Shown one piece after another: positions 39,122 to 63,410 of a stretch of 64,000 bases of DNA (position 1 is its first letter; the number at the start of each line of letters is the position of its first letter). Below the pieces are notes generated by a model, which saw only the letters and a program-made list of their open reading frames with translations, made no database searches and was not told where the DNA came from. The stretch is from the NCBI GenBank assembly GCA_964187785.1, contig OZ076413.1, positions 42,036,001 through 42,100,000 on the forward strand. The letters are read 5' to 3'. The stretch is from Amphiscolops sp. MND2022 (Eukaryota). Both the position numbers and the translations under genes were made by a program.

Positions 39122-39127
39122 ATATAA

Positions 39128-39620
39128 GGCTCAAAAATATTCAAGGAACAACTATTGGAAAGATTTGGAATTTTTTTTTCAAAAAAAGTATTTTTTTTAA
39201 AAAAAGTCGCACAATGCCGAAAAACTTAGAAAAGAGGCCATTTAGGCTTATGAAACGTTTTTAGAAACCGAAAACTTCGAAAAAATGCAAGGGGGTACCC
39301 TTTGATAGAATTCGAAAATTTTCGAAAAAAAGTCGCATAGTGCCGAAAAAAACCCAAAGGGGGACCTTTTGGTCTCGCCTCTACTTTTGGAAGCATCAAA
39401 AACTTGTGGTTTAGAGCGAGAATCGAACCCACGACCTCCTGCTTCTCAGAAAATTAGTTGTGAAAAACTAAGCTTCTCAGAAAACAAAGGAACAAAAGAT
39501 TGTAAAAAAGTGGACCACTCAGAGTGAGATTGCCAACTGAAAAAAAATTAAGAAAAAACTACTCACTGTAAGAGACGGGCTTTTTACCTTAAGGGAAAAG
39601 GCGCCGACTAAAAACAGGCT
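39128..39620 (-). repeat. Interspersed repeat family A, reverse copy inserted into the retroelement nest
   Basis: ATATAAGGCTCAAAAA start, AAAAAAGTCGCA(C/T)AGTGCCG subunits, ACTGTAAGAGACGGGCTTTTTACCTTAAGGGAAAAGGCGCCGACTAAAAA end; contains a B-box-like GGTTCGATTC on the - strand near 39420. Confidence 0.8.
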
Positions 39621-40020: not shown

Positions 40021-41975
40021 GGCTTCGGTGCGTTTCCTATGTGCTGATGGATCAGAGTCGGCGCCCGCTCAAATTTCGAAGAACCAAATAATGGTAAATT
40101 TTTATTGGTTTTCCGTGTCAAAATATACCCGAAGTGATACGCAAAAAACTCGAGAATCATTTTCCCTGACATAAGATCTTAAAAATTGTTTTGAATGAAC
40201 TAACCTCGTTCAAAAGGAAACTGTTCCAACACTTGACCTAAAGGAGATGACCCGCCCGATCGGCACCGTTTCCATTCCCCGAGGGTAGTTACTTTACTGT
40301 GGCAATAAAAACACTGCACTATCTGAATTGATCTGAATTACAGTTTTAATTCCAAACAGCTTTTTCCCTTAAGTACTGGTGAGTCGAATGACGTGAGCTA
40401 ATGGAGAGATGTTGCATAAGCACTACACGATAGAGCCTCACTTACTCACCATAAACAGTTTTTTTGCGGGAGTTGAGCATATAGTAATTCTACTTGACAC
40501 TACTGCTGAAGTTACATAATCGAAATAAAGCCACGATGCTCGAACAGTAGCGAGTCTATCCAAAGACTGATTGCTGGTTGGGCACCGTGGGCAGGATTAC
40601 CTTCCAGTCTCTTCCATTCTCCGATCATGCCTGTTGAGGTCTCTGGAATTAGCAAGATTTCTCAAGGTACAATTTAAAAACTTTGATCAGTGGCCTTTGA
40701 CCAGTTTCTTCTTCCGGTTCAAAGTCATCAAGCCTCGCATCCCATTTACCTTCCTAAAAATTGCCATGTGAAGGTAACCGTGTAAGTTGGTACAGGTCAG
40801 CTCGACGAACTCTCCAAAGGAACCGAAAAAAACTTCCATGGAACATTCGCGTTCAATCAATCAGGTTTTTTCATTGTAGCGCATCAAGACCTCGAAATGA
40901 TAGTTTGCAACACCAGCCTGGGCTTCCAGTGTTTTTTGTAGAACTTGAACAGAATTCCCTCATTGAGCCTGCGCGTCTGTCTTTTCACTGTTGTGTCTTC
41001 TTTTATTTTGCAAAGTTGCATCCTTCCTTTTTCGCTTTCTATCTCGCTGCAATTTCTGAGTGTGCCGTGACTTCTTCAAGCCTACATGGCATTTGTGAAC
41101 TGGCAGACGCTCAACACTATCAGTTTGTTCTCATTGAAAAACTAATGGAAGCAAACGGAAAAAAATTCACTGTTGAAACACCTGGAGCACACAACCCAGC
41201 CAGACAGTTCTTTCCAATAAAAATATGCCTGACGTAGCTTTGCGGCATGATTGCTTTCCGCAAGCGTCCCATTGAGCTCACCTATATTGGTTTATCATGA
41301 GTATATCAAAAAATGTTTCCTCAAAAATCTCTTGTTCATAGCAATTATTAATCGAAAAACAAAATTGCACAAAACAAATGGAAACAAGCTTTTTTGTCTA
41401 CTCGGCAGCTTCGCATTCCAAGGTCCTATTTTTTGAAGCAAAAAAAGCTCAAAGGCACCTCCGACAAATACTAACTAATCTCTAAAGTCGAAATTGAGAG
41501 TAATACATTGAGAGATCAAACGGTACCGACTCTATTCAAAGACTGAATGCTGGTTGAAACTCGGTAAAAAGGGTTCTTCTAGGCTCCTCTTTCCGTCTCT
41601 ACTCTCCGATTAGGCACGTTGAGGTCACTCGATTTGGCAAGGTCATACCCAAAGTAAAACATGATCATTGGCGATGAAACAGTTGGTTCTACCAGTCCAA
41701 GTTCAACATAAAAGAGACCTTAGCAGCAATATCTCGAACGAACCACAATGACGGACGTTGTCGACTTCTAGCACGAACATACTTAGAAAAGAGGCAATAT
41801 ACATACTTATCTACGACATGGAACCTCTTTTTCCTATACAACATGTGAAACTGCACGAACTTTCTTCCAGGCTTTTTTTGTGTGTGAGTTCAACATTTAA
41901 AAATCTTATTGAATTTTTCTTAGGAATTACAATTCATTTATAATGAATGAGAAGCGTTGATTACGAAAGCACTAA

Positions 41976-42307
41976 AATATCCTCTTTTCAGACATATTGT
42001 AGTTTTGGAATTATGGATTCTATTTGTATCTCGCGGACGAGCGATCTCTTCTGATGCATGGATCACAATCAACACTTTGAATGTTTCACTCTATTGAAAG
42101 GCGACTATTAAATATTCGAAAAAATTTTCTTAGGTTCTAAATATTATTCTCTTCGGATGATTGTAGTTCAAGTGAACAATTAGCTCACAGTTTGAAAGTG
42201 GATGATTATTTAAATGTCAAATACTTTTGAAGTCTAAATGTCATCAATTCGGAACTTGGAATTTGTCCTCAACTATGTTCTTGTTTAGGTCATGGGATAC
42301 TAAGTCA
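41976..42307 (-). mobile_element. LTR copy 1 (diverged member of the 326-bp LTR family)
   Basis: GGACGAGCGATCTCTTCTGATGCATGGATCACAATCAAC and downstream blocks shared with the LTRs at 46962, 58256 and 58745; termini degraded. Confidence 0.8.
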
Positions 42308-42919
42308 TTTTCCACTCAGAAAAATTCGGAGATGGTTCGGATATTTTCCGCATTGGCTTTGGATTGGTCATGAAAACCACCAAAGATTCCTCGTAAGCCA
42401 CAAGAGTCGGAGTTGCGCATGGCGACTCGGCTCCAAAAAGACCAACGGCTGCAAGGGCAGCTATACCTACTGCGGCCCCACGCCTTCGCCGGGTTGCGTC
42501 CGGCTTCAGTGGCGAAAGGAACATTGATGTTTCGTTGCGGTTAACCAGTAGATCATTTTGAGTTTCAGCAATTTCATTTTCAAATTGCAAAAGCATCCAG
42601 TTGACATTAACACCTGATGAAATGGTGGCAAAAACACTCGAAAAATTCAACGGACAAAAGAGTGATGGGACTTGCTACAAGTGAGAAAGCCTGTGAAGCA
42701 TGGCTTCGATATCCGGTTTCATCGAGAAGGCATACTGAGGAAAAGCAATCGAAAATCGACTAAAATAAATTTCTCGGACAATATGATTGTGCTACGTTCA
42801 TATAATAAAATTCTTCTCTCGAGTAGAGCATTTGGAACCGTAGAAGTCGCAATGTTAGAATTCCAATCACGCTAAACGGAATAAGGGACAAAAAGCAGAA
42901 GTAGGAGAAAGGAATACAT
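42308..42919 (-). pseudogene. env: env family 1, N-terminal fragment of element E2 (signal peptide, RRRR furin site, fusion peptide), truncated at LTR1
   Basis: MYSFLLLLLFVP..WNSNIATSTVPNALLE..SEKFI; ATRRRR|GAAVGIAALAAVGLFG, matching 47693-49744. Confidence 0.8.
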
Positions 42920-43206
42920 CGTGTCGAAGAAAAGCAAGAAAGGAAAAAAAGGTCGCTGAGTCACGCCAGAAATCTTGATGACACAGAAATTTCCTGTTGA
43001 AAATGTCAATTCTGAGCAGGATGTATTCGAAAAGCGACGCCATGAAACTCTAAATGTCTAAGAGTCATAATGATGAAATTTAAACTAAGAGTTTGGTAAA
43101 GTAGGCGGGCGTTTGGTCAACAAAACTTTATCGGTCAAGGATGTTCAAACTGAACTTTGTACGAAAAGCAACGCTAATCTTGACTTCGAGCTTTTCAGTT
43201 ATCAAA

Positions 43207-43590
43207 ATGAAAACCAAAATTCTTGTCGCTTTTTGTGTGGTATTCGCTATGTATTCGTCATGCGAAAAAAACAGTGCCGTAGCCAAACGTTCTGGTGCTG
43301 TTCGAATGCCACAAAATATGAAGTCAACGAAAGAGTTGTCTGGAGTGCGCTTTTGCCTTCAATGTGTAAAAAAGAGAAACGTTTGGTGGAAGAAGAAAAC
43401 AATGCAGTCACCTACGTCACGTTGACTTTGTAATTGGAAGTTTTGTCTGTTGTGGCCTGTGCGGGCACTGGTACCAGGGACGTAATCGAAAAAACTGAAT
43501 CGACAGCGAAAAGACAAAGACTGTTAAAAAGACAAAACACCCCAACCTTGACTGAACATTTATCCAGCAGTTTAATGTCTAGCAATTAAG
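43207..43590 (+). pseudogene. Antisense small Cys-rich membrane protein (ORF U), E2 copy
   Basis: MKTKILVAFCVVFA signal-like start, FWCCSNATKYEVNERVV, VTYVTLTL; conserved with 50017-50395. Confidence 0.5.
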
Positions 43591-43720
43591 TGCATGGACT
43601 TTTGGGCAGACAGTTTTTGTGGGACCAAAAACGGTTTGCAGTTGCTTTTGAAAAAGGCAGGAAAATGAAAAAACTAACAGTGAAGCCGTGAAACGTTTGA
43701 AGAGAGAAAAAAGTTTTAAA

Positions 43721-44059
43721 TTAGAAGAGTAAAAAAATGATGAAGTAGCGAAAAGACATCCGAACAGGCAATAAGGAAATTAGAGTTAGGTACAATTGTT
43801 CATATTGGATTCCAGCATCAACGTGACAGTGTATGTAATCCTCTGCATAGTGAATTCCTGTGACAAAGTATTCATGACCGGTCTTGAAACAGGTCCATCG
43901 TAATTGAATAGGAGAATTTTGAGTTAAGAGACCCATTGCAGGAGAGACGAATGTTGAAAGAATGTTAACAGGTGACATCGAACTGGCAAGTGGAGAGGAT
44001 GTGAAAAGAATGACTACCTCAAATTGAGGTACGTAAACAAAAAATATAAATTTCATCAC
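43721..44059 (-). CDS. Unknown accessory ORF V, E2 copy (112 aa, open)
   Basis: STFVSPAMGLL...FKTGHEYFVTGIHYAEDY...QYEQL conserved with 50661-51054. Confidence 0.55.
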   Translation of the reverse strand: MMKFIFFVYVPQFEVVILFTSSPLASSMSPVNILSTFVSPAMGLLTQNSPIQLRWTCFKTGHEYFVTGIHYAEDYIHCHVDAGIQYEQLYLTLISLLPVRMSFRYFIIFLLF

Positions 44060-44159
44060 AAAAAGTCGTCAACTCCGAAAGTGACAAGTTAATGTCAGAG
44101 TCAAATCGAACGTTCGATGAAAAAATGGGAAAAAGACATCAAATATGGTATTAAAATGC

Positions 44160-45078
44160 ATGGGTAAATTTCGAAGGAAGTAAAACAGCATATTTAGAAA
44201 ACAAGGGAGCCTTGTTTATATCAAGAATGTGTGCGATTTATGAAGCAAAAAGAGTGGATTAAAACGGAACTGAGAATGGAGGAAAGAATAAAATGGGTAA
44301 AACGAAAGTCGCGATGTAATATCGATGAAACTGGAGCCTTATTAAGGAAAGGTAGCCAAGTATTGACAAATGCAGAAATGGAAGAAATATTTGGACCAGT
44401 GCATTACAAGGGAGGCAAGCTTATGCGAGACGTTCGTTTGTTACGAAAAAAACTTTAGTCAGAAAGGGTATGTTTTTTCGTCATTTTTGGAAGGGCTAGG
44501 AAGAGCGTGTCAGCAGTAATTATTAACGATAATAACTTGTGAGATTTGATGACATCGAGATGTTATGTAAGAATTTACGTACATGCTCGAGTGCGAGAAC
44601 AGCTTGTGGGCTTTCCATGAAGGATATCAATTGGAAAGAGCGTCACCAGTTACCGATCAGTACCGCAGGCAGAACTGCTCTCAATTGAACTTTCAGTATG
44701 TAAAGGCTCCCGATGCGGAGTGTATAAAGATGGTATGATTCCGTGTTAGCTGAAGCAGGTGGAAAGTGCTGGTTTTCAGCAATTTGGTTTCTACTAGTTG
44801 GCAAGAAAAGCGGTGATTAAACTTTAAGGAGAAGCTACTAATATTTATGTAATATTCGGTTTTAAACTGTGTCTTTGTGGAGAATAAAGAACATGAATGA
44901 TCTGAACAACTTGAGAAAAGGTATCGAGAAACGCAGAAAGGAGCCTGATTCTGAGGAAATTTGCCTCAGGGTATTGAAGTACGCCACAATTCCCCGAGAG
45001 ATAGACGCGGTGACAAATTCGAACCAAGCCGTTCGAGAGCCTTGGGTGTGTAGTCTACTGGCCTTATTAGTCTACTAG
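44160..45078 (+). pseudogene. Integrase-Zn-finger-like + OTU-like gene, copy 2 (3'-truncated)
   Basis: VLTNAEMEEIFGPVHY..SFLEGLGRAC, GGKCWFSAIWFLLVGKKSG (Cys codon 44767), YATIPREIDAV..EPWV; each block aligns with 51154-52334. Confidence 0.65.
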
Positions 45079-45303
45079 CCTTATTAGTCTACTGGCACGA
45101 CGAAGACAATCAAGGGTGGATTCGCTGTCCAGCAGCGGGGCGCTCACCGACGTCTACTGTTCGAGGGACGTTGTTACTGCACTGGACACACTCAAGAAAG
45201 TATAAGATGTTCCATTGTGAGTCAATAATAAAATGGCCAATAGGAGAGATAGTTTGCTATTTTTAATGCATGTAAAAATCGGTGTAATGAATTGATTTGG
45301 CTG

Positions 45304-46337
45304 TTAGGGCTGACAAGTCATAAGAAAGAGCTCATGAAACGGAGCCAGTGAAAAATACAAAAAATGCTCGAGCACGTTGTTCTTAGTAGTCAAAACACAC
45401 TGAAAATGATTACACTCATGAACTGTCATCTGAGGAATTATCTCAGGAAAAGGTTTACTCAGGAAAGCTACTTTCAATTGATTAGAATTCTGACCACGAA
45501 TTTGGTTATAAGCACATCTTTGGACTTGCTGCGTTTGATTATCCTGAAGGACTTTCAGTTGATTTGTAAGTTTTAGGTTGCGTTCTTCAAACTGTTTAGA
45601 CATTTCATCTAGTCGATTGTCCAGCGCCTCTTGACTAGTACTCAATTTAGTCAGGGCAGTAACAAATGTGTCTGTTACTGATAATGTGTCTGTAACTGAG
45701 AAGCCGATTTCACTAAATGCATCAATGACTGCATCATCTGTTTTAAAGAAAAAATGGATTGAAAAATGTTTAAATGCAAAAATACAAATACATAAATCGT
45801 CAACTGTAATATTTTCTAGTTGTCTGGTATAATTTTAGGAACTGTCGCCGAATTGGCTTTGAAAGGGCCCTTTGAGGTGATCTATTGATATCTGGAAGAC
45901 GTGCAGTATCTTGATTAAAGCGTGTCTGTTCCGCAGCACCATCAGCTGCTGCGCCGTTTATTGGTGCGGCCGCTGGAGGATTAGGTTCCGGATACGCTTT
46001 AAAAGCGTTTGTCTGTAAAATTACGAGAGAGTTTTCCGGATTATCTGTTTTTGGATCGAACTTAAGGTTTTCGAGATTCAAAACCGATAACTCTTGTAAT
46101 TGCGGGTTGCAAGAATGGTTTTTATGTGCTTCAAGTGACAAAGCTAAATCATTTCGCATTGCCAATGATGAAGTTTTAAAATAGCAAAAAGCGGCATCAC
46201 GCAGATTCAAATGTAAAAACTTGCCTGTTGATTAGGGCAGCGACAGCAATAATACTCTGGAGCAAGTGCTCAAATTCTCGAAATTTTTCTTTTCCGATTC
46301 CAGAACAAGGAGTAAGAGTGGGGTGAGGTTGAGCCAT
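45304..46337 (-). pseudogene. gag: gag-like capsid ORF (frameshifted)
   Basis: MAQ..SGIGKEKFREFEHLL..FLHLNLRDAAFCYF..LENLKFDPKTDNPE..AYPEP, Ala/Pro-rich linker, coiled-coil and N/Q-rich C-terminus with Cys/His remnants; lies 3' of an LTR on the same strand. Confidence 0.6.
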
Positions 46338-46961
46338 AGTTTTCAGTTAAGACTGAGAGTTGAGAAGAAACGATTATAGGAAGAATAAGAGGATGAAAAT
46401 AGAAAATGATAAGTTAGTGAACTTCAAAACAAAAGTTTGGGATCTGAGAACCAAGAAAAGGAACTTGAAGCAAAAAGCAAAAATTAGACAAGGTTGCGTA
46501 TTCAAAAATCAGTTGTTCGAGACGTCCAATGACAAAAGGAAGAAATTTCATCAGTTATGAATGAATTGATCGATTCCAGAAAGTTTCCAGGACTTTCAGT
46601 GTTCTTCAAAAGGAGATTAGAAATGCGAAATATCTGTGAAAATTAAATCAGTCAGAATGAGTTGAGACCCAAAAAAGAACATCAATATCAAATTACTACT
46701 TCAAAACTGGCTTTAATCGCACCAATCGCATTTCTGTTGTAGTTGTGAAGTCATCGTGGAAGCCGATCGCATTGATCAAACCGAAAATAGTCGTCGAAAC
46801 ATCAACAACGAAGTCATGTAATTGAATTCTTTCACCCAAGACAGTTGCATTGAATATAGGCATTTCGTAAAATTTGAAGAATTCTTGTAGAAAACAAAAG
46901 CGAAGAACACGTTTTCTCAATGTTCAGTGTTTGTAGTTACAAAGATACTACCGGCCACTAA

Positions 46962-47287
46962 TGTATCCTCCTTTCAGACATATTATTTTGGAATCACAAT
47001 TTCTTTTTGGATCAAGAGGACGAGCGATCTCTTCTGATGCATGGATCACAATCAACTCATCTGTTTTACTCTATCGAAAAGGCGACTGTTCAATATTCGA
47101 GTTAGTCTCTGTTCTGTTTTAAATATTATTTACTTCGGATGATTATAATTTAGGTAAATAAACAACTCAAAGTTTGAGAGTGAATGATTATTTAAATGTC
47201 AAATAGTTTTGTAAATGTCATCAATTCGGAACTTCAGGAATTTATTCTCAATTATGTTCTTCTGTTTAGGTCATGGAGTACATGACA
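46962..47287 (-). mobile_element. LTR copy 2 (3' LTR of element E1), 326 bp
   Basis: On the - strand begins TGTCATG and ends GGATACA; 8 mismatches versus 58256-58581; immediately preceded by a polypurine tract. Confidence 0.9.
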
Positions 47288-47298
47288 CTTCCTCCCTT
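47288..47298 (-). promoter_or_regulatory. Polypurine tract (PPT)
   Basis: AAGGGAGGAAG directly abuts the TGTCA start of the 3' LTR on the - strand. Confidence 0.8.
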
Positions 47299-47692
47299 GA
47301 AAACACTTCCGGCGTCTAGAAGAAGCCATCATCTGGTTGGAGAAAGAGTACAGGTGGTATGCGACAGACCCAAAGTTGAGTAATCCCATATAGTTCCAAA
47401 TCCAATGAATATTGAATGTAAAGCCAGCACAAGATCCAAGTTGGCCCAAAAAGAAATTGTTGTCATCAAAGAAGTTGCATGGTGTCCAGTCCAGGAGTTG
47501 TTGTGCCAGAAATTTACTACTTTCGTATTTTACATGATACTGCAAGAAATATATGATTGAAATGAGTTTTATGAGAAAATAGATGATGATAGGAGAGGTA
47601 ATGCGGCAACAAGTCATTTTGAAAACAGTTCGTCAAGTCAAGCAAGTGGGAGTTTCATGCTGGTTATGATCATTGATATCAACCGGGACAGA

Positions 47693-49744
47693 TCATATTG
47701 ATGAAGTATCATACTGACGAGTATGTTTTGCTAATGATACGGAGGGATTAGAAAAATTACTCGACGCTTTGTTAGTAGCGTCTGTCAAATATTCGGGCGG
47801 TGGTTGAGGACGAACTTCTGGTTCAGCATTGAATTTGCCAAGCAGTTTCTTAAGACGACCATTTTTATGAAAGCGGTGGTAAAGGTACATGAAAAGAAAA
47901 TGAAGGGCAGTTGACACAAAGAAAACAACAATAGATAAAGTCAAAGAATTTTGAATGGAACAAACTGATTGAATTCGCGAGTCAAGGATGGTTTCATAAG
48001 TTTCATGTTTTTCGCAAAAGGACGTGCGATGTCTACCAATTGGTTGACTTGGCGAATTGGGGGTTGCTTAACAGTTCTTTTCTTACAGTGCCTAAGAAGT
48101 TTGCTCCTGTTTCTGCTTTCGTGGTGAAAAGAGGCAGATCCTCAAGAGGAGGAAATTCCATGATCAATGATTGTAAAGGATCAGGCAATGATAATCTCAA
48201 TTTAAATGCTGGAATTTGAGAACAGCTTGATAAGTCTGATCTTATTTTGATGTTATTAGTGCGAATAGTCATACCGCACTCCAATGTATTGATACATATT
48301 TGACAACCGGAGAATGATTTTGTTGATGATGATATTAGTTTCGCAAACTGATAGGGCTTCAAGAGAAGTGTCAAAAAACAAAGACGCAATACAGGAAGAA
48401 TGTCCTAACTCCGTTGTAAAAGTTTTGGAACAAATTCGGTATTTGGACGAACCGAGGCATTGTTCAAACTGGTCCTTGGATAAAACAGAAGATTCCATAT
48501 GGTCATCAGATAAGGCTAAATATGTTGCCTCAAGTTTCCAAGTAATAGCTAACTGAGGGTCATCTGGGTAAGGCATAGAAATAGTTTTTGCCTCATATAA
48601 AACAAAGACTGTTTGTTTCGACGCTAACGGTATGTTAAGGGTCAATAAGAGTCCTTCTGATATCGTGACAGCGTCTGCCAAAAGTCGAGAGTCGTAGTAC
48701 GACAAAAGATCCGAGGTCGGAATGGCCAAAGAAAGTCGGTCTGCTGCTTTGGCTTGCTGAAAAGCAACGTGATCCAAAATCACTAAAAGCGATTCCATAG
48801 GATTAAGCGACATCGGAAAATGTCCCTGCAGTAAAACTGGGATAGAATTTAAAAGGTTCATGCGGAAGCTTTTAACGCTGGCATGAATCATGGCCAATAG
48901 CGAAGAAATAGTATCGAAGTTGAAATTCAGTTGCTGATTGGCGAACAAAAGTTGGTCGCAATCCCGAAGGATGTTAAAATTGTCGGCATAAATGTCGAAT
49001 TGTTCTTGGGTAATAGCCCAATTAGTATTTTGGGTACGGCTCATTTCGGCTTGAATAGCTTGCAAAGCGGCAAGCTCGTTTTCCACTAAAAAAAATTTTC
49101 GTCCGTGTTAGTAGAAAGTTCCGTAACAAAATCCGTGAGAACATCTTGAAATTCCGAAATAATTCGAAAATTTTCCGCATTAGCTTTGGTCTGGTCATGG
49201 TAACCACCAAAGATTCCTCGTAAGCCGCAAGAATCTGAATTGCCCATGGCGACTCCGCTGCCAAAAAGACCAACTGCAGCCAGAGCGGCCATGCCTACCG
49301 CGGCCCCACGCCTCTGGCGGGTGGTCTCCGGCTTCGGTGGCGAGAGGAACATAGAGGTTTCGTTGCAGATAACCAGGAGGTCTTTTTGAGCTTCAGCAAT
49401 TTCGTTTTCGATTTGCAAAAGCCTCCAATTGACATTAAAACCCGATGAGTTGGTGGCAAAAACACTCGAAAAGTTTAACGGACAAAAAAGTGATGGTACT
49501 TGCCACAAAGTGGAGAGCCGATAAATCATGGCTTCAATATCCTGTTCATCGAGAAGTCATACTGAGGAAAAGGCACTTCTACTCGAATAAATTTTTCGGA
49601 AAGTAAGATTTTACTTCGTTCATTAAATAGAACTCCTTTTTCTAGGAGGGCATTTGGATCCGTTGAACCCTCAATATTAGAATTCCATTCACTCTGAACG
49701 GAAGCAGGAGCAAAAAACAAAAGTAGAAAAAGGAAATGCATCAT
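47693..49744 (-). pseudogene. env: env family 1: class I viral fusion glycoprotein (full length, several frameshifts)
   Basis: Signal peptide MMHFLFLLLFFAPASVQS; furin site RQRR (49319-49308) then fusion peptide GAAVGMAALAAVGLFGSGVAMG; heptad region ENELAALQAIQAEM; Cys-rich ectodomain; TM LSIVVFFVSTALHFLFMYLY and cytoplasmic tail. Confidence 0.85.
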
Positions 49745-50016
49745 GGCACTTTGAAGCAAAATTTGAAATAGTTCCAAAAGTCACGCTTGAAAACTTGATG
49801 TGAAAGAGATTTCCTGTCTGAAATGTCAAGCGTAGGCGATTATGGTTTTGAAAGTCACGCCATAATTTGTCAAATGTCATAGAGTCAGGATGTTGATATT
49901 TGATTCAAATACAGAGGTTTCCAGTAGGCGGAATTTGGTCAACAAAGTCTTCTAGTTGAACTGAGCTTTGGACTAAAACAATACTAATGTTGACCTCGAG
50001 CGTTTCAGTCATCAAA

Positions 50017-50395
50017 ATGAACTTGAAAGTTGTTGTGGCATTGGCCAACATCATGACTGTGTGCTTGTGTTGCCAAAGGCACAAATGGCGAAACAAAAAT
50101 GTCTGGTGCTGTGAAAACGGAACAAAAGTTGAGATTGATGGAAAAGTTGTATACTTATAAAGCGCCAATATGTCTCCGGAAAGAACTCATCAAAAAGGAA
50201 GAAAAAAGTCATGTTGTTTCCTACCTCATGTTAACGCTATTCCTGCTGGGAAGTTTCGTTTGCTGTTTGTTGTCTCTGTGGTCGCTGGTATCGGCGACGT
50301 CGGCAAGAAGAGTAAAGTTTAAAGTTCGACAAATACCAAAAACAAAAAACAGTTACAGTGTAGTGGAATGCGCAGTGAACAGTTATGGCAGTTGA
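50017..50395 (+). pseudogene. Antisense small Cys-rich membrane protein (ORF U), E1 copy
   Basis: MNLKVVVALANIMTVCLCC..VWCCENGTKVEIDGKVV (frameshift) ..VVSYLMLTLFLLGSFVCCLLSLWSLV (TM-like). Confidence 0.5.
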
Positions 50396-50660
50396 AAAGT
50401 TTGACATTGAATATTTTAAAATGAAGTTTTAAAAGTGAATGAAAGTTAAGCTACTGGTAAAAAAGTGTTCGCAGTTTTTAGTTTCTTTTGTTTAAAAAAG
50501 TTTTTACAGTTTGTTTTTTTGAAGAGTCAGGAAAAACAAGACGAAAACTAACAGAATGTGGAAAAAACCAAAAGAGCAAATAAATAGTTGAAATTAGAAG
50601 AGTATAAAGAAGGAAATAGGAAAGTTACTGCCAAATATACGAGGAGTTAATGAATGTTTG

Positions 50661-51054
50661 TTAAAGTTGTTCATACTGATATTTCAATGCTCTGCGGAGT
50701 CGAAGCATTTTAATGATGCCCCTGAGACCATGTGATTTGGGCATGGTAAAATTTTTTGAATGCAGGAGGAGAGTAAATTCAATCCACCGAGGGGATCCAT
50801 ATATCAGGACCACATCAGGTCCGGAAGTCAACGTCAGAGTTACGGTGTAGTCCTCCGCATAATGAATGCCGGTGACAAAATAGTTTTGGCCTGTCTTGAA
50901 AGTGAATAGGAAAGTCAAGAATGAGAAGACCCATTACCGGAGAGTGAAAAGTTGAATGAATGCTAAGAGAGGATGATCCAACAAGCAAGTGACGAAAATT
51001 CTAAACAAGTGACTGACTCCGGTCGAGTGGAATAAATAAGACGATAAATGTCAT
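50661..51054 (-). pseudogene. Unknown accessory ORF V, E1 copy
   Basis: STFHSPVMGLL..FKTGQNYFVTGIHYAEDY..QYEQL, with one stop and one frameshift relative to 43721-44059. Confidence 0.55.
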
Positions 51055-51153
51055 GACAAAGTCATGAACTTTAAATATGTCAACAAAATATGAACGAAAA
51101 GCGATCGTTCGAAAAGGAGAAGAGAAAAAACATCAATCAGGGCTGGAGGTGAC

Positions 51154-52334
51154 ATGACGAAAATTCAGAAAGAATTAAACAAAATTATTTCAGAGAAAAC
51201 GGAGCCTCTAATGAATGCTGCTATTTTGGAAATGATAAGGAGTGACAAGTTGGATCCACTCGTAACGCAAACACAACAGATGAAAGATATGTGGCAGAAA
51301 AGAATGAAGATGTTCAACAGAGAAGGAGAAACCTTGTTTTTTTTGGGGGGGGGGGGGCAAGGTTGTGCCTACCATCAAGAAGATGGAAAATATAATTTTG
51401 CCACTACATTATGAAAAGGATCATTCCATTGATATACGAGTGATGAGGGATGCCTTAACTGCAAAAAGGTACGGGTTGCCGTCGTTTCTAGGGGGCCTGG
51501 ACAGAGCTTGCAAACTGTAAGTTTAGTGTAAATATGATTGGAATCATAAATCATCTCACTTCACAACTGTTTAGGGTGTTACATGACTGTCCGCAATGTT
51601 TCTGGAGATTGCATCAAGGCAATCAATGGCAGAGGGCAGTAAGTGTGCCTTATGAGAGAAGAAAAGAAATATGCAAGCCATTGAGAATGAATTTCCGGAA
51701 AGAAACGGACGCATATTTCAGAGAATGGGCAATGTGGGGATCGGAGCCACCTTTTGCCACATGTAAGGCAAGATATGCACAGGGAGCCGGAGCATGCTGG
51801 TTTTCTAGTGTATTCTACCTACTATGTGGTAAGAAGAGCGGTAAGTAGTTGCTAGATGAGCAAAGAAATTTCCAAACAAGGACTAAACACGGTATTGCTT
51901 TTAGAGAAAAAGAAAGTTGGAAAAGTTTTGCAGAAGTTGCGAGATGAGATAGCGCAAGTAATGAGTACTGTGGCTTTTGAGGAGGAAGCAGTACGAACAT
52001 TGGGATACTCGACCAATGTGTTTGAAATTGAGGCGGTGCGGCAAAAGAATGCCTATGTCAGTGAACCATGGGTCAGTATCGAGTAGCCATGAAGAAAAAA
52101 CTTGGTCAGAATGAAAAAGCATTGTGAAAAATTTAGATGTTGGGTACAGCAAAGTGGCTCCAACATGACATATTAGTCTTCTGGAGATATGATGCCGGGA
52201 GGAGCTGGATTCGTTACCCAGCTTGGGAACGAAAAGGAGGGCCAAGATCGGCTTTCTTGTTTCACGTCATCCATTCAGAAAAAGAAAAACTCTTTCATTG
52301 CGAGCCCTTAGTGGAGTGGCCGGTAGAAAGGTAG
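51154..52334 (+). pseudogene. Integrase-Zn-finger-like + OTU-like cysteine protease, copy 3 (antisense within E1)
   Basis: VVPTIKKMENIILPLHY..H..RYGLPSFLGGLDRAC; QGAGACWFSSVFYLLCG (Cys codon 51795); KLRDEIAQVM; LGTAKWLQHDILVF..WIRY; AFLFHV..LFHCEPLV (His codon 52296). Confidence 0.7.
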
Positions 52335-52894
52335 GTGTCTGTTTAAGAGTCAAGTCAAAATGGTTGAAAAAGAAAAATTGTAAAGAAATGCAATTTAGCA
52401 AGGATGAGTCATATTGCGCTCATGAAGAAAGCGAGAAACCGCTAGCAAAAAGCGCAAAAAACTCATGGAGAGAGGGTGTGTAAGCAGCAAAACTCAAAAT
52501 TGATATCATGAAGTCATATTTCCTCCAAATTCAAATGATTAAACCCCAATAATTTTGTGCAGCAAACGCTAGCGGGAAGCAAAAGGAAGTCATGCAGACC
52601 CATTGAGGCCATGTGGAGGGAAGAAAGGTACAATTTTTGGACACTAAAAATCAAGCAAAATTGAAAAACAAACAGCTCACGCTGTCTACGGTTATTTTAA
52701 AATTTTTCCTCTGGGATTCTGGATTTGTACTCATTTTCAGATTCTCCATGAAAAGTTAGGCTCCCGCCCTTTTTTCTTAAGTCCGTAGATAAATTTTAAC
52801 ATAAGAGTTTTCATGTTGAAAGTTCGAATTTTTCACTTATAGCGTAAGTCGGAAAAAAAATGTCAGTCAATCTGACAGGGAGCAACGCTGTGGC

Positions 52895-53395
52895 TCAAAG
52901 TGGAGAGCGTTCCAAAGAGCAGAGAGCAATGCTCGAGCGTACCGGTTGGCAGATTGTATTTGTGATGTTAAATTGCGAAAAAACTTGAAAAAGAAGAGAG
53001 AAAACTGTTGGCCAATGAAGCTCGTCATAGCCGCTTCCAAGTCTCGGAATGTTCAATGCTCGAATATTGTGGCGTTCCATATGGCGCTTCAGGGCCGTAA
53101 GGCCAACTGCAGGCTGTTGTGGGTAGTACAATGAAAAAAATTTTGTTTGGTGACTAGAGCATAAACCAATTTTTGCGTTTGTTGATCATAATAAGCTATC
53201 AGTGAGCCCGGCGGCGAAGATCTTGAAGTTATTTGTGCTAAATTTTGGAGAGCAGGGTAACGACTGGCTATAGCAGAAGCAAGGCTGAAGCAAGGCTCTG
53301 AAGAAAATCAGAGGATGTGCTGTATGCGAAAGACTCATTAGAAGTTAAAAGACTAGACTGCGAAAAACAAATTTTAGGATAAACTGAAGTTGCTA
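52895..53395 (-). pseudogene. TARG1/OARD1 (Poa1p-like) macrodomain, two frameshifts
   Basis: Reconstructed PKICFSQSSLLTSNESFAYSTSSDFLQSLASAIASRY..LVYALVTKQNFFH..LQLAL.ALKRH..LNIPRLGSGYDELHWPTVFSLLFQVF aligns with human TARG1 (YLITK84..SMPRIGCGLD125RLQW). Removing an 11-bp tandem duplication (53276-53297) restores the frame. Confidence 0.75.
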
Positions 53396-53404
53396 TGATA
53401 GCAT

Positions 53405-56400
53405 TTACATCATTATTTGAAGGGCGTTTTTCAAATTTTTCAACGAATAACGTGATTTAATTTCCTTCTGTCGCCGGAGATATTCAAGCGGCATTTCTGC
53501 TTGAGTAGGTTGCGCAATCGGACGTGGAGAAGTCGTAGACTGAGATGGTCCACTCAGATGTGAAGAAGACAAACCCATTGTTTCACGTGTACGTTCTAAT
53601 GATTCCAAAATTGATTGTCGTTTCTGTTCTTGAGTAGTAGTAGGTGATTCGCGCATAATACTCGAGGATGGAAGATAGCGTTCTCGATGTGGAATTTTGG
53701 CTTCACTTTTAAATCGAGTTTCAGAGTATTGAACTGGATGTAACCGCGGGCGCAAGTTTCTAGTCAGTGGTTGTGTATTAGCCGATTCAACCTGTACTGG
53801 AGGATCTGGCGACAGTGGTGGACCGGAGGTGTCCAGATTTATGTCCGAAAGGTCAGTTCGAACTGTATTCTCGCCCTCCGAGTCCTCTGATAATATTGGA
53901 GTATTCGGGGGATCTTGTACTAAGAGTGGTGGAGGACCTCCCACTGCCACTTCGGGTGCTGGCACTGGCGGAACAACCGGCCCAGGTGCAGGGGCAGCTG
54001 CTGGAGCAATCGGAAAGTGCAGCGACATCGTAAGTGGAGGAGGATCATCCTCAACAACTGGTGTGGAAATTAGCTGTGGAGGGGCTTCCAATAATGAAGG
54101 AAGACTTTCATCAAACAGGTCAGGTTCACCTCTAAATTGACCTAATGACGGGTCGCATTGAAAATTTTCGAAAGTTATTACAGGTATGTCACCTACACGA
54201 CTTTGAGGTGTTATTGGGCGGAGACGAAAGCGATGAACGCATTGAGTATAGTTTGTGCCCACTTTACGAATAATATAAATAGAATTAGTCAAAATTTTTT
54301 CTTTTCGATATAAGGAAAGCCAAATTGGTAAAGATTTACTAGCAGAATCGGATTGCGTCATTAATTTCGGGTTGAGCAACAGACAGTATAAAAAAAGCGA
54401 AAGCGGTTTGGCTTCAGCTTTATAATCATAATATGTGCGATATTTGTTGTACATGTCAGTAAGTTTTTGTCGCGTTTCTGAAAACTTTTTATTCATTGCG
54501 TCTTGTAGAGCAAAAACGTATTCGCTATTTGGCGAGTACCTTTCAATCATACAGTTGTTAAAGCGTACATCTAAGGGTTTAATCGGTTCACGGCCATGAA
54601 AAAGAACAGTTGGACTACATCCGATCGCTGAATGATAGGATGTATTATGTCATTCCATTGATCATTCGTGTTAAGTTTAAGAATTCGTTTGAGTGCACCA
54701 TGCGATCTTTCAACAACACCTACTGTTTGTGGGTGTTTCAGGCTCGCGTGTTTCAGTTTGACTTCAGGGAGTTTAGCTAATTCATGCATTAATTCAGAGA
54801 CAAAAGATGTGCCTAAGTCTGAGAGAATAGTGCCTGGGATGTAACTATGACGAAAAATTATTAGTGTTAATTCACGAGCTATAGTATCGGCGCGGACATT
54901 TGTCAATGGAACAGGGAAAAGATATTTAGTGAAAACATCGATTGCTGTTAAAACGTAATGATCATGTGGTGACTGAAGAGGACGCACTATGTCAATTTGA
55001 AGAGTTTCGCCTAGATAGGATGTTTATGACGAAAGTGGTTGCAATGGGGGTTTTAAGTATTTTGACGGGGCACATTTTAATTGAAGACAGGTGAGACAAT
55101 TTTTGATCGATGACAGTAAAAATTCTGTAAAATTAGGAAAATAAAATCGTTTTCGGAATTCGGCGATTGTTTTTCCGATGCCAAAATGCCCTGCTGTTTT
55201 AGCGTTATGAAGTCGAAAAACAACCTCACGCCAGAGATGTTTAGGAACACAGAATTGCTTGTTTTGTACTTTGCCACAGTCGTCATAAAATAGACGATAT
55301 AAGACATCGTGTTCAAGAATCAGGCGATTGAACTGTTTTTTTATATTTTCTCAGTGCGATAGGAAGATTTGGGGACTGATCAAGGCTGCCTCGAGCAAGC
55401 CAGAAAATAACTTCAGAAATTACTTCATCTTTTCGTTGTTCTTGAGCCAAGTCAAGAGATAGCGATCGGTCCGGCAAAGCATTAATATTATCTTCAAAAT
55501 CATTGTTTTCAATATGGTTCACCTGGGGGACTTGGGTTAGCGAAAAACGTCCAGTTATGGAATCAGCGGGATCTTCTTTAGGTTGACTTGCTAAGAAATG
55601 GTCATAAAGACCATGTTTTCGAAGTTGTTCAAGGAATTGTGCATCAACCGGTTCAGTAGTGTTGTCTGGAAAGTTTTGGACACTCTCAATATTGGACAGA
55701 GAAACATCCGGGGATTTAGCTGCCGTTTCAATTTCAATTTCCCTAACTGGGACACGATCTGTTAATTTAATTTGGAGACTCAGACTTGGATCGGTTTGCA
55801 TGCGGGAAAGAAAATCGGCTGCTGCATTTGCCTTGACAGGAATATGTGCTAGTAAAATGTTAAACGACAAGACTCGATCAAGGCAATTCCATAGAGAGGG
55901 GTGAATGCTTTTAGATTGAAAAAACTGCGTAAGACTACGATTATCAGTTAAGACAAGAACAGGTTTTGTGGCGCCCCAAATAAAATGTGCAAAATGCTCA
56001 AGAGAAAAATAGAGCGCTAAAAATTCCTTGTAGTACACAGAAAAATCCAATTGAGTAGAAGTAAAAAGTCGTGAACCGAAGGAAACTGGAGCATATGTTT
56101 TTTGTTGTTTACCATTTTGATCTATCAAATAGTCTTCAATCATTAGAACAAAACCAGTGCCATGAAAACTGGCGTCGCAAAGTATTACATATTGAAGACC
56201 GGGTTTAGGTAATTGTAATGTAAGATTGGTAGCACGTTTCAGGTCAGCTTTTAACTATTCAAGGTTTTTATAGTGGTCATCAGTGATCAAAAAGTTATTA
56301 TCTTTTCGTAAAGGGCGGTAAAACGGTAAAAGTTTGTCGCCAAGATTCGGCATGAAAGTTCGAAAGTCGAAAACTGCACAAGGCCAATGAGTCGTTTAAC

Positions 56401-58230
56401 TTGTGTCACGGTGTTTGGCATTCTGATTTGACCCAAGAATTTTTCGATTTTTGCACTTTCAGGCGTGATGCCTTGGGGGTTATTGTATTGCCTAAGTAAT
56501 CAATTTTTGTTGTGCCAAATTCGCATTTATGGGCGGAAAGCTTCAGACCAGAGGCTCTCAAACAATCAAAAATTTTCCTCAGAGCAGGGATCAATTCTTC
56601 AAAATCATTGACACCTGCGGCAATATCATCCATGAATTGAGTGCATATGTTGGCGGCTAAGCATGGGTCAAGGTAGTGCTTGATAAAGGAACTAAATCCT
56701 GTGACAGATTTATTAAGCCCTTGAGCCAAACAATTGTAGGCGAAAGTTCGAGAGGCAAAATTAAATGCCAAAAGTTGGACAGAAAGGTCATCCGCCATTT
56801 GTACACAATGATATGCTTGTGAACAATCGAGTGTGCAAAACAACTTTTTCCCGGCGAAGTGATTTGTGGCATCAGTCATGGCGTAAAAGATGGTTCACTC
56901 GTCGCAAGTCAATTAAAATTCGCATTTTGCCAGATGCTTTGCGGTGAACAAATATTGGGCTACTGTATTTGGAATGTGGCAAGGTCGTTATTATATTAAA
57001 GTATTGTAACAATGCCAATTCAACCAAAAGTTCGTCGCGTAGGTGAATTGGAGCAGGTGGACCTTGAACGTAAACAGGAAGTGGATGTTCGGGCGTTAAT
57101 TTGATCTTTAACTCGGTATCATATCCTACGTCAAATCGATGTTTAGCAAACACATCGTGGTACTCAACCACGAATTTGTCCAGGTCCTGTTTTTGGTCAT
57201 GACTCGAAACACAAGTATCCCATGAAAATTTCTTCAAAAATGCCTGTCGATCAGACTCATTTTCAGCAGGATTCTTTTTTCCTAGGCGTTGCATTTGTAG
57301 GATCTGATCATCAATTTCGCGTTGTAAGGGAGTTAATGACGAAAAGTCAATACAGGTTTCCAGTGTGGGAAACCATAGTTTAGAATAATCTGGGGGCGAA
57401 CGACCTGTAGGTGTATCAATTTTTTTGAAATGAAAATCTTGAATTAACTGATTGAGTTCACTCTCAAAGTCATCAGGATTTCTCATTTTCGCTAAGGAAA
57501 TCAACTGAGGGTCAATCGGGATAAGATCATCTGCATCGGATTCGTTCAAAATTTGGATTTGAGCAATTTCAGTTTTGTTGTTAAATATAATTCGTGTATC
57601 GGAAAAATTTATAGCGGATATGAAAACTTTGCCACTATCATCAATAGTATTAAGTGAAGAGGTTAAAACTACGCTGCTTTTATCTTCCATTGGCGGACTA
57701 GGTATAACAAGTCCAGTACAATTTTTGTATTCATCGTTGTCAAGTTGGCATTCCAAAAGAGCTTGAGACTGAGGCGGAATATGCACCTTTTTTGTCAAGA
57801 GAAGAGAAATTTTTGGTAACTTTTTCGTGAAATGTGACTTTTTTCCTTGTTCAGGAAAATTTTGATTAGGTTGTACAGTTAATTCGGGCAAATGTAACTG
57901 ATTGCTTTTTGGGTCAATCGTAATATTATGTTTCTTGAAAAAAAGGGTTTCCAAGAATGATACTATTCATAGTAGGCATTATCAGAAAGCTATCTTGGAA
58001 GGTATGCTGTCCGATTTGAAATGCTATTTGGCTTGTTTTTCAATAGAAACTCGCTGGCCTGCTGCCATTCGGACTGAGTGGAAAGAAGGTTCTTGTAGAA
58101 TAATTTGATCCGGTATTGATTTTTCCAATTCTAAGAAAAAGCATTGAGGCAGTGCATATGCACAAGAGCCTGTATCGATTAAGACTCGCCTTTTTAATTG
58201 ATTATGAAATTTTAGACGGACATAAGATAA
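53405..58230 (-). pseudogene. pol: pol polyprotein remnant: aspartic protease, RT, RNase H, integrase, Pro-rich C-terminal extension
   Basis: Protease LIDTGS; RT YSSPIF..KMRILIDLRRVN, LDCSQAYH, QFMDD; RNase H KEFLALYF..VLTDNRSL; integrase AIDVFTKY..SDLGTSF..HPQTVGVVERSH. Ty3/gypsy order; many stops and frameshifts. Confidence 0.92.
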
Positions 58231-58237
58231 GTTTTCT

Positions 58238-58251
58238 CCTTCTGTCACCCA
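58238..58251 (-). promoter_or_regulatory. Primer-binding-site-like motif (tRNA-Leu-like)
   Basis: TGG(G)TGACAGAAGG follows the 5' LTR after a TTAG spacer; a similar GTGACAGAAAG follows LTR4. Resembles the common TGGTGTCAGAAG Leu PBS of gypsy elements. Confidence 0.55.
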
Positions 58252-58255
58252 CTAA

Positions 58256-58581
58256 TGTATCCTCCTTTCAGACATATTATTTTGGAATCACGATTTCTAT
58301 TTGGATCAAGAGGACGAGCGATCTCTTCTGATGCATGGATCACAATCAACTCATCTGTTTTACTCTATCGAAAAGGCGACTGTTCAATATTCGAGTTAGT
58401 CTCTGTTCTGTTTTAAATATTATTCACTTCGGATGATTATAATTTAGGTAAATAAATAACTCAAAGTTTGAGAGTGAATGATTATTTAGATGTCAAATAG
58501 TTTTGTAAATGTCATCAATTCGGACCTTCAGGAATTTATTCTCAATTATGTTCTTCTGTTTATGACATGGAGTACATGACA
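58256..58581 (-). mobile_element. LTR copy 3 (5' LTR of E1), 326 bp
   Basis: TGTCATG...GGATACA on the - strand; 318/326 identical to 46962-47287. Confidence 0.9.
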
Positions 58582-58744
58582 CGGCCCTTTTCTGTTCCGT
58601 TTCACGAGCAGTGGATGTGGATGTGGACATGGATGCAAGTAGTGGGCGTCCGGGCGTGGCCTGTATATTCCATTCAGACAGAAAGAAGATAAGTATTATA
58701 TAGTGTGATTTGAAGTTGATTGTTATCTTTCTGTCACTAACTAA

Positions 58745-59080
58745 TATATCCTGTTTTCAAACATATTTTAGTTTTGAAATTATGGAGGATTCTGTTCAGA
58801 TCAAGAGAACAAGAGATCTCATCTGATGCATGGATCAGAATCAACACTTCGAATGCTTCACTCTATCGGAAATCGACTATTCAATATTCGGGTTAGTCTT
58901 TATGTTGTAAAAACTATTCGCTGCGGATGATTATAATTTAAGTAAACAAGTAGCTCAAAGTTTGAAAGTGGTTGATTAAATAAAAGTCAAAACGTTTTGA
59001 AGTCTGAATGTCATCAATTTCAGACTTCAGGAATTTATCCTCAACTATGTTCTTCTGTTTACGTCACGGAATACAAGACA
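58745..59080 (-). mobile_element. LTR copy 4 (diverged)
   Basis: Same family, starts TGTCTTG on the - strand, followed by a PBS-like TTAGTTAGTGACAGAAAG. Confidence 0.8.
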
Positions 59081-59429
59081 TAAGCTTACAAGTTGACAAC
59101 GGCAAAGTTGACTGTTAAAATTTTTCTGTGTGCAGTTAAAACGCTGCGGGCACGATCTGGCGGGCTTCTCCTCTCTTCCTACGAAACTTTTTTCCGATTC
59201 AGCTTCGGAATTATGAACAAATATGTACAGGGCCTTTTGCGTCAGGTCATCTGCTTGCTCTTACGCGACTAGACTAACCACGTGTCTCTAACCACAGTAC
59301 CTTCATCGACTATGGTGGCCGTCTTGGCGTCCGGTTGCGATCTAGGACGCTCTCTCATGCATCTCTATTTGATCCACAGTTCCTGACGAGTTCGCTCTGT
59401 CAAATAAAATCTATCGGACCTGACATCCA

Positions 59430-61175
59430 TTCTTCCTACTTTTCTTCCGTCCACGACAGGGGCAAGGTTTCAGCTGAAAGGCCAAAAACCGGTGTCTCAA
59501 ATTCGCCACCAGACCCCCGATCCCCTAGAGGAAGGGCGTCACCAGCGTGAGGAGCACGGCGCTGATTACTGGGTGTACCATTGCTTGCCACTGAAGTGGT
59601 GCATGTCGCTTCATCATGATCAATTCAGCGGAGGGGCGCTTGATTCGCTTCAGTTCTTCTTGATCAAACGCATTCTCTGGTAGTTCCAAAAAATTTATTT
59701 TCAAACCACACAGGAGGTCTACATGTATGGTAGTTCTAAGTTCTTTTGGAAGGGTCCAATCGGTGTCTTCGGCAAGAAATGCTTCTGGAACCGTGAACGT
59801 GGATGCAAGTTCGGCCTGATGGTAACATGCAGCCCTGCCTCATGCTGGCATTCTCTTGGATCGGGATTCAGCACAAGGCTGTCATCCGGGATCTAAAGTC
59901 GTTCTCCACATGCGGGTCCTAAGAAGCAGCTCCTGGAACACTTCCTCTCTCCACGACTCTTTGCTTAAGAAAAGCTGTTCCTTCCATCTGATTGGAGGAA
60001 CTCTGGTTCTGCTCAAATACATGCCTGGTAGCGGTTTTTCCGTGGCCTATGAGCAGTCGGAATGGCACCGTTTCGTAAACCCTGTATAAACCATTTGCAT
60101 AATGCATCAGTATAATTAAGAGCACGTTTATGGACGAGTCTGTCATAACCACAGTCTCCACCAATTCAAATCCGAAATACGCAGATAGCTCCGCCCGAGG
60201 TATCGCTTCCTGCTTTCCATCATTTTGAATGCTGTTCACTACTTTCAAGAGGGCTTTCCTGGGAATCAGCGCCGCCGCAGGTGTGAACCCCTTCGCTGAA
60301 TGAAATCGCTTCCAGAGCGTCATCAAAATGTCCCTAGAGTTGTGCAGTCCTACCTGAAAATGCAAAAAAATCAGCACAGAGCGTCTGAAGCTATTGAGGA
60401 TGGTTGAATGGGATAAAGGTCTATCGTGCCGCTTCGACAATTTCATGCTCACGTTTGCCACAAACATCCGCAAATTCTGCATGAGACTTTCCACCAGACA
60501 TTGTCTCGAACATTGTTCTCATTTATTGAAGTGTCAATTCAAGTCGTATTCGAGAAGGCGCTGTCTTGCTTGGGTTCTGTTCAGTCAGAGGCCCGCCGGT
60601 GGTTCGTTCGACAGACTCCAATATAACTGTTCGGGCGAAAATGTCCGTGTCTGTGAGTTTTTGGGTAAACTCATCACAGCGGCCAAAACATCGCACACAA
60701 ATGTGAAAGGACAGAAGCCGTCCAAGGCAGTTCGAGGTAGTAACGACACTGCGGCCGCTCTCGCTATTAACAATGTCATCGGACCTTGTGTATCTCAGCC
60801 TGAATGGGATTCAGTGTGTCTAATGTATGTTTCGGCTAGCTTGCGCATTTCATTGACGTTTTCATTACTTCCAAATAGGCTTTCTCTACATTCTTCAATC
60901 CCAAAAACGTCACATTGTAGAGTACGTGTGTGTGATCTCGTCATTCGCGCGAATTTTCACCATAACAGTTTCAGGAGACACGAGATTTGTACTGGAATTA
61001 TTGAAACACTAGACCCAATTGTTTAGAGAAAGGAGTAACCCATGCAGCTTCCAACGAATTAGCTACGATAACATGGTTTTCTGGGTGAAGGCCACCCCTG
61101 CAGTACTGTTGTAATCCAAAAGTTTTGCTGTTGCGGAACCCCAACAAATCAGCAACAAGATCGAAACAGATTTTA
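59430..61175 (-). pseudogene. env: env-like fusion glycoprotein family 2, near full-length decayed copy
   Basis: Signal-like SVSILLLICWGSATA; ALIPRKALLKVV..AIPRAELSAYFGFELV (cf. env1 LAIPTSDLLSYYDSRLL); ECQHEAGLHVTI and PENAFDQEELKRI..HPVISAVLLTLV align with 38330-39121. Confidence 0.7.
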
Positions 61176-62502: not shown

Positions 62503-63410
62503 TAGGGTCCAAAGCGGACCGGTGTCGTCCGCCGTCCGCACTATCGGTCCGCCGTCCGCAGTCCGCATTTCTCAGAAATGCGGTCCACCGCTTTATGTGC
62601 ATGGCCGTACATTTCTGAGAAATAGGAATTAGGAATGTCACTTTAGCTGCTGCGTTATTTATATAGCTACGTTGCGGATCAAATTTACTCTCTTTGCTTT
62701 TAAGAATTGTGCTTTTGGCTTTCAAGAATTGTGCATGGCTGCAAAAATTGTGCTGATTGGGTTACATTTTGTCAAAAGTACACATCCTTGAAGAATGGGG
62801 TAACCACGCCAGGAATCGGTACAAATGAGTTAGCATTTTACGAAAAGTATACTGTTATTTTCGTAACGGAAATTTTGCATTGTATTAACGGAAATTGTTC
62901 TGATATCTCTCCCAAAGCTAGACACTGGCTGGAATTGCTTTCCAATGACAGATTACAGGATTTAGATGAATTGGTAATGCAGCGCATGATTTCCTCAACC
63001 CCTGCCGATGAAACTGTTTCACGATTGAAACGATTTGCGGATTTGGTTCTATCAAAAATCATTCTGAGCGAAGCTGAAGTGGAGCGAGTGTTTTCGCGTC
63101 ACAAAAGTATCCACACGAAAATGAGATCCAAACTTGATCCAAGTATTGTTGAAAAAATTGTATTTGTAAGGTACAATGGTAAGAATGTAAAAATTGCGCC
63201 TCCTGAATTTTGTGCGGATGACACTTGCGCTGATGATGAATTTGAGGCACTTGAAAATGATGAATAATTTGTACTTTCATTATCAGTTTTGAAAATTAAT
63301 CTTCTTTTGAAGTTGTTTTTTTAAGAATGGTCCGCATGTTCGGTCCGTAGTCCGCGCCCTCCCGTCCGCAGTCCGTGAATTTATGGCGGACCGGACCATT
63401 TTGGACCAGT
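62503..63410 (+). mobile_element. Internally deleted hAT DNA transposon retaining the C-terminal dimerisation domain
   Basis: 8-bp direct flanks TGATCGCA (62495-62502 and 63411-63418), imperfect TIRs with GGTCCAAA core, many subterminal GTCCG(C) motifs, ORF 62707-63267 containing SEAEVERVFS..HTKMRSKL..VEKIVFVRYN. Confidence 0.85.

Follow-up and report, generated by a model that had tools for sequence, protein, structure and literature searches.

TARG1-type macrodomains are fused into Pol in at least three separate reverse transcriptase (RT) lineages of gypsy retroelements, which we regard as the more notable point of this analysis. The window (the whole stretch of 64,000 nucleotides that was analysed) holds a broken copy of such a domain, in three pieces spanning 53381-52940 on the minus strand, and its host there is a dead Ty3/gypsy element with an F-type env. 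In unbroken members of the same family, the sequences show a Pol with the order protease, dUTPase-like region, RT, RNase H, integrase, flexible linker and macrodomain. The Pol-borne domain may serve as an eraser of host ADP-ribose marks on element proteins, RNA or cDNA, a reading that draws on conserved residues and a predicted fold and that we believe about as much as we doubt. In invertebrates, ADP-ribosylation has not been established as a defence against LTR retrotransposons; RNA-virus macrodomains are a proven counter to PARP defence. The fusion, kept whole in many relatives, hints that hosts tag such elements with ADP-ribose and that the elements erase the tags, and a high-copy gypsy family with the TARG1 catalytic pair on Pol, together with the other lineages, makes the ADP-ribosylation-defence question directly testable with natural domains.

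The features of the host element are collected in Table 1. The unit has paired LTRs, identical at 325 of 333 aligned nucleotides, and the pol order PR-RT-RH-IN of Ty3/gypsy elements. The type of element suggests an animal host. Several frame changes and nonsense codons interrupt its pol: in-frame stops follow the protease piece at 58026-57969, and the RT/RNase H stretch contains frame changes and one stop. Pfam gave no match for the protease piece. Residue 23 of the related Pol P0001 aligns at 58242, and pol begins within about 15 nt of the upstream LTR; because it starts almost directly at the LTR, there is no gag between the two in the macrodomain-bearing unit. A gag-like match is found in the next unit, at 46297-46004. 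Four related LTR copies (59081-58740, 58581-58256, 47287-46962 and 42308-41971) lie within 41971-59081 of the window and bound a tandem of partial units, one with pol, macrodomain and env and no gag, followed by one with gag, an antisense remnant and env and no pol.

Table 1. Features of the macrodomain-bearing unit, with positions in the window
Feature	Position	Strand	Basis or remark
LTR 5′ of pol, TGT...ACA	58256..58581	-	nearly adjacent to pol
pol, protease piece, D-T-G motif	58027..58251	-	motif level
pol, dUTPase-like region between protease and RT	57556..57804	-	PF00692 E 2.2e-4, 21.5 bits, slightly below the cut-off of 22
pol, RT and RNase H	55316..56894	-	PF00078 E 9e-21, PF17917 E 5e-16
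pol, integrase zinc-binding domain and core	54574..55350	-	PF17921 E 3e-14, PF00665 E 1e-7
pol, integrase C-terminal part and Pro/Ser/Thr-rich linker	53408..54649	-	43 Pol relatives
Frame break at Pol/macrodomain junction	53420..53440 (near 53430)	-	in frame in relatives
Macrodomain N-terminal piece, first strand to S-x-D loop	53274..53381	-	profile E 1.6e-5
11-bp tandem repeat and frame break in ligand-binding loop	53276..53297	-	
Macrodomain middle piece with T-K	53092..53283	-	profile E 7.4e-19
Macrodomain C-terminal piece with P-x-L-G-x-G-x-D	52940..53098	-	PDB TARG1 E 1.4e-4; profile E 3.6e-22
Broken antisense frame between pol and env, OTU-like Cys (codon 51795) and His motifs	51094..52331	+	motifs
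Broken env, F-type fusion glycoprotein: basic cleavage motif, hydrophobic peptide, membrane segment	47700..50186	-	Atlas
LTR 3′ of env	46962..47287	-	also 5′ of the next unit's gag-like frame

The first-pass annotation had proposed a profile search as a check on the macrodomain. A profile of natural relatives finds exactly three matches among the 3,218 six-frame segments of the window, all at the macrodomain and in order, whereas Pfam had no match for either of the two macrodomain pieces searched. Against 177,635 PDB sequences, the C-terminal piece alone matches human TARG1/OARD1, and the middle piece alone has no match. The Lys of VTK (codon 53148-53146) and the Asp of GSGYD (codon 53026-53024) are both there as claimed, at the positions equivalent to K84 and D125. 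The claimed 11-bp tandem duplication is the only exact adjacent 11-mer duplication of at least three letters in the 64 kb, and the claimed break near 53095 agrees with the spacing of the Lys and Asp codons, which are 122 nt apart in the window and 41 codons apart in all six relatives checked. The count of only two lesions does not stand: at least three frame breaks are present, the third, near 53430, severing the domain from a Pol with which it is continuous in relatives.

The loop around the tandem repeat is altered by more than a plain duplication, measuring 20 nt against five codons in relatives, and the loop glycine kept in 39 of 41 family domains is absent from the window copy. The ligand residues of loop 1 (H32, C33, S35 and M40-G43) are not intact, being represented by Tyr, Ser, Ser and a disrupted loop, with the Ser at the C33 equivalent standing where 38 of 41 family domains have Cys. 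The N-terminal piece keeps the equivalents of S35 and D37 and has 67% identity to P0001 over 42 aa. Both halves of the published TARG1 pattern are found in the window with a frame break between them, and the window copy is a dead remnant.

Assignment to the TARG1 family, as the annotation had claimed, is upheld by the C-terminal window piece together with a profile search and a structure model of natural relatives. A profile built from seven relatives matched human TARG1 best in the PDB (E 6.6e-34), with DarG at E 5e-11 and PARP9/14 at E above 0.02. In the profile alignment the Lys and Asp of the domain fall in register with K84 and D125 of TARG1, again as claimed; these are positions 78 and 119 of the 4j5q chain, the numbering offset of 6 being taken from the chain length and from the spacing in PMC6397177. 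The model predicted for a natural relative (pLDDT 82.5) has its best matches among TARG1 structures (Foldseek E 2e-12), with a TM-score of 0.83-0.86 to TARG1 4j5r. Sixty cluster members, the ones listed for four clusters of 47, 25, 121 and 61 sequences, include 29 complete domains, every one of which has the TARG1 pattern as given in PMC6397177, TKx(30,35)Px[IL]GxGxD.

Of 41 complete domains of the family, 39 have Lys at the K84 position and 38 have Asp at the D125 position; most of the departures are in the decayed domains of P0017 and P0021. The loop-1 residues are retained to differing degrees (His in 29, Cys in 38, Ser, the S35 equivalent, in 39 and Gly in 39). Only 10 of 147 columns show no variation among 39 rows; the Lys is one of them, as are Ser, Asp, Gly, Pro, Gly and Gly of the ligand loop. 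The subfamily nearest to the window copy (9 of 41 rows) has Tyr at the H32 position and Asn at the M40 position, and Asn occupies the D20 position in 21 of 41 rows; because of these changes, ligand binding may differ from that of TARG1. Between subfamilies, identity is 31-59% in the domain, 23-42% in the linker (about 20% when shuffled) and 61-83% in the integrase, so that the domain evolves faster than the integrase. In each of the 15 pairs compared, which are not independent of one another, it is better conserved than the adjoining linker.

The first-pass annotation had offered a C-terminal pol domain or an adjacent gene as alternatives, and the relatives settle the matter in favour of an in-frame C-terminal Pol domain. 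Our search with the integrase tail gave 43 Pol relatives. A macrodomain profile seeded from the eight of these that have the published TARG1 pattern places the domain at the Pol C-terminus, 3′ of the integrase, in 13 of the 43; the pattern is thus present in 8 of the 13, these eight being the seeds themselves. Unbroken copies, which the annotation had suggested inspecting for fusion to integrase, are fused in frame through a linker of about 230 residues, and in six relatives the linkers measure 158-247 aa with 24-34% P+S+T. A tree of RT-RNase H with 34 rows (16 were left out for want of that region) places all domain-bearing family members in one 16-row clade with 98% support. The 12 outer relatives on this tree have no domain, an absence that is not firm because many of the domain-less rows are truncated frames. 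Four sequences of the same RT clade or family (P0017, P0021, P0018 and P0023) combine long Pol frames with a domain that has decayed and no longer fits the TARG1 pattern, so that catalysis is dispensable in some lineages. The decayed copies have also lost residues of the glycine-rich binding loop.

Beyond this family, our profile search gave 7,756 representatives at E <= 0.001, with the TARG1 pattern in 122 of the best 150. A Pfam scan of 91 of those best 150 found LTR-element domains in 12 and a viral helicase in one. The domain takes several places in Pol. In P0146 and P0177 it lies 3′ of the integrase; in P0065 (Athalia rosae), P0154 (Harmonia axyridis), P0097, P0111 and L007/L008 it separates RNase H from integrase; P0155 and P0185 have it between protease and RT, and in P0187 it is N-terminal to the protease. 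On an RT tree of 87 rows the domain-bearing Pols fall in three separate lineages. The domain itself is scattered on a tree of 41 rows, on which a single origin is not rejected (p-AU 0.074). Among gypsy loci chosen by RT motifs only 2 of 85 have the domain, and one of these is the source of a query sequence. The closest viral folds include Kadipiro virus VP8 and those of flavi-like, negev-like and virga-like RNA viruses of invertebrates (insects), and the RNA viruses with a TARG1-type domain do not integrate.

Further TARG1-type domains were seen in other settings. P0064, P0070 and P0077 have flanks that resemble, by eye, the pre-RT region of another retroelement, and they group near the window family on domain trees. 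L010, L049, L051, L052 and P0184 have the domain and its catalytic pair within long virus-like frames. In P0085, P0170, P0188, P0189 and P0087 the domain is fused to NADAR, uracil-DNA glycosylase, polynucleotide kinase phosphatase, TBP and SLOG domains.

There are possible explanations for the retention of such a domain on Pol. In TARG1, K84 is the nucleophile and D125 resolves the intermediate on Asp/Glu-linked ADP-ribose, and TARG1 also reverses thymidine ADP-ribosylation (PMC9967889, PMC10789625) and ADP-ribosylation of RNA bases (10.64898/2026.03.31.715305); RNA-virus macrodomains counter PARP-mediated defence (PMC7232374). Being part of Pol, the domain would be packaged with it and would move with the replication and integration complex, either staying on the integrase or being freed by the protease. 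Judging from the conserved residues and the fold, its Lys would attack ADP-ribose linked to an acidic residue or to a base of DNA or RNA, and its Asp would resolve the resulting intermediate, the most likely purpose being to remove inhibitory PARP-family marks from the proteins, RNA or cDNA of the element. The first-pass annotation had likewise proposed that the domain may protect against PARP-type defence. An active hydrolase could instead do housekeeping, clearing the ADP-ribose that PARP1/2 lay at the gapped integration intermediate or on nearby chromatin so that repair is clean, with no part in defence. The lineages in which the domain lies elsewhere, N-terminal to RT or to the integrase, speak against such a role, as do the non-integrating RNA viruses with a domain of this type, and we hold it to be unlikely.

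The domain might alternatively act chiefly as a reader: it would tether integrase to ADP-ribosylated chromatin and so influence where the element inserts, as chromodomains do in that slot. Related elements do have chromodomains C-terminal to the integrase (PMC13524379), and decayed copies of the domain stay in frame; the catalytic Lys and Asp, however, are among the best-kept residues and would not be needed by a pure reader, the decayed copies also lack the residues of the glycine-rich binding loop, and we find this quite unlikely. Clearing of small metabolites (e.g. O-acetyl-ADP-ribose) or of ADP-ribose attached to the primer tRNA within the particle is suggested by the name of the best PDB match, O-acetyl-ADP-ribose deacetylase 1, and by the dUTPase-like region, another nucleotide-housekeeping module in Pol. 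We judge it highly unlikely, as there is no sign that such metabolites limit reverse transcription and the Lys required for protein and nucleic-acid substrates is invariant in the 39 non-decayed rows. That a host TARG1 exon was captured and is hitch-hiking without benefit would fit the decay of the domain in several lineages and its absence from most gypsy elements, yet the domain stays in frame and keeps its catalytic residues even in subfamilies between which linker identity has fallen almost to that of shuffled sequence, which makes passive carriage a very long shot. Removal of host ADP-ribose marks is the role that we favour for the Pol-borne domain, at about even odds.

A lead, rather than a result, concerns the errantiviruses. 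A 'pseudo RNase H' N-terminal to the integrase, with a flipped strand order, has been reported in almost all insect errantiviruses (PMC13524379). In our collection, insect-type Pols have TARG1-type domains in the slot between RNase H and integrase, frequently a decayed one beside one that keeps the catalytic pair. The four decayed copies are matched by a profile of 106 non-retroelement domains (E 7e-24 to 3e-6), and a weak model of one of them matches macrodomains best. L059 and L065, both three-frame errantiviruses, fall in the RT clade of the TARG1-bearing Pols with 100% support; their bridge domains gave no profile signal either to macrodomains or to RNase H. The reasons for reading the 'pseudo RNase H' as a decayed macrodomain are the shared Pol slot and RT clade, the occurrence of tandem copies in both groups, and a flipped order of strands, which we take to be that of the macro core. 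It is possible, if somewhat doubtful, that TARG1-type erasers are a recurring counter-defence module of invertebrate gypsy elements and RNA viruses and that the 'pseudo RNase H' is a decayed TARG1-type macrodomain and not a copy of RNase H. The former, if true, would imply that invertebrates have an unrecognised defence against retrotransposons that works through PARPs; the latter would call for a new interpretation of a feature only recently published for a major group of insect retroelements. As a separate observation, 80 loci (L062-L141) are eukaryote-type gypsy pol genes in prokaryotic genome assemblies, probably through host contamination, and L065 lies inside a Wolbachia assembly.

The first-pass annotation had placed the novelty in a combination with OTU and env. 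Its env part stood: the first Atlas matches of the env pieces are to Baculo_F-bearing clusters (score 0.95-0.96), in which PF12259 is found on 28-44% of members, at a low recognition value (1335). Support for an F-type env is moderate because Pfam gave no match on the env pieces. The OTU part stood at the level of Cys and His motifs only, the antisense frame having no Pfam or PDB match. These motifs, which we take to resemble those of OTU proteases, recur in an antisense remnant of the neighbouring unit (about 44730-45260, plus strand), and an OTU identity of the frame is plausible from its sequence. Another antisense frame, 36191-36706, scores 0.92 with an Atlas cluster that is 19% PF02338 (OTU); its similarity to the 51094-52331 frame is weak, with 15 of 1,000 shuffles as high.

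Several other features were seen in the window. At 35833-36706 (plus strand), in a different element, an antisense frame encodes an H2C2-like zinc finger (PF17921, E 0.0015) and, after it, an OTU-like region; the Atlas clusters closest to the latter come mostly from large DNA viruses. Another family is represented by two related env-like fragments, both C-terminal and on the minus strand, at 38333-39130 and 59525-60518. A single frame of 2314 residues at 23398-30339 (plus strand), whose N-terminal region is Cys-rich (B-box-like) and coiled and which includes a long Glu-rich repeat, is probably a host gene, and a hAT transposase dimerisation domain (PF05699, E 6e-5) is found at 62704-63267 (plus strand).

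In the full-text literature, which leaves aside most subscription journals and Repbase, we found no TARG1-type domain fused to a gypsy Pol, and passages of 10.1101/2021.11.30.470311 held nothing relevant. Given that coverage, and because one database labels P0146 a transposase/O-acetyl-ADP-ribose deacetylase fusion, earlier notice of the fusion is possible. Virus-borne ADP-ribose erasers are known, then, and the Pol-fused TARG1 form in gypsy elements is what we did not find in print. Coronavirus, alphavirus and hepatitis E virus macrodomains are likewise ADP-ribose erasers that sit within a replication polyprotein and counter PARPs (PMC7232374), but they belong to another class with only 12-13% identity, and no reverse-transcribing element is covered there. 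Viral genomes also hold TARG1-like homologues, according to PMC4245714. Among LTR retroelements, fish epsilon-like endogenous retroviruses carry macro domain frames (Basta et al. 2009, as cited in PMC4977317); these are additional ORFs in Retroviridae, their class unstated in the citing passage, whereas the domain described here is an in-frame part of a Ty3/gypsy Pol.

Env-carrying Ty3/gypsy elements (errantiviruses in the sense of PMC13524379) share the gag-pol-env layout, LTRs and F-type env, but the main text of that survey does not mention macro, OTU or dUTPase domains. The macrodomain of the DarG2 antitoxin (PDB 5M3E, 5M3I) is of the same class with the catalytic lysine, and DarG2 removes thymidine ADP-ribose from DNA; it differs in its bacterial toxin-antitoxin setting and in its weaker profile match (E 5e-11 versus about 7e-34 for TARG1). 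Human TARG1/OARD1/C6orf130 (PDB 4J5R, 4J5S, 4J5Q and 2LGR; ALC1-like class) resembles the domain at a TM-score of 0.83-0.86 and 33-35% identity, with the T-K and P-x-[IL]-G-x-G-x-D motifs and the K84/D125 pair. It differs at the H32, M40 and D20 positions, which are changed in the subfamily nearest to the broken window copy, and it is a stand-alone cellular enzyme, whereas its relative here is the last Pol domain of a retroelement.
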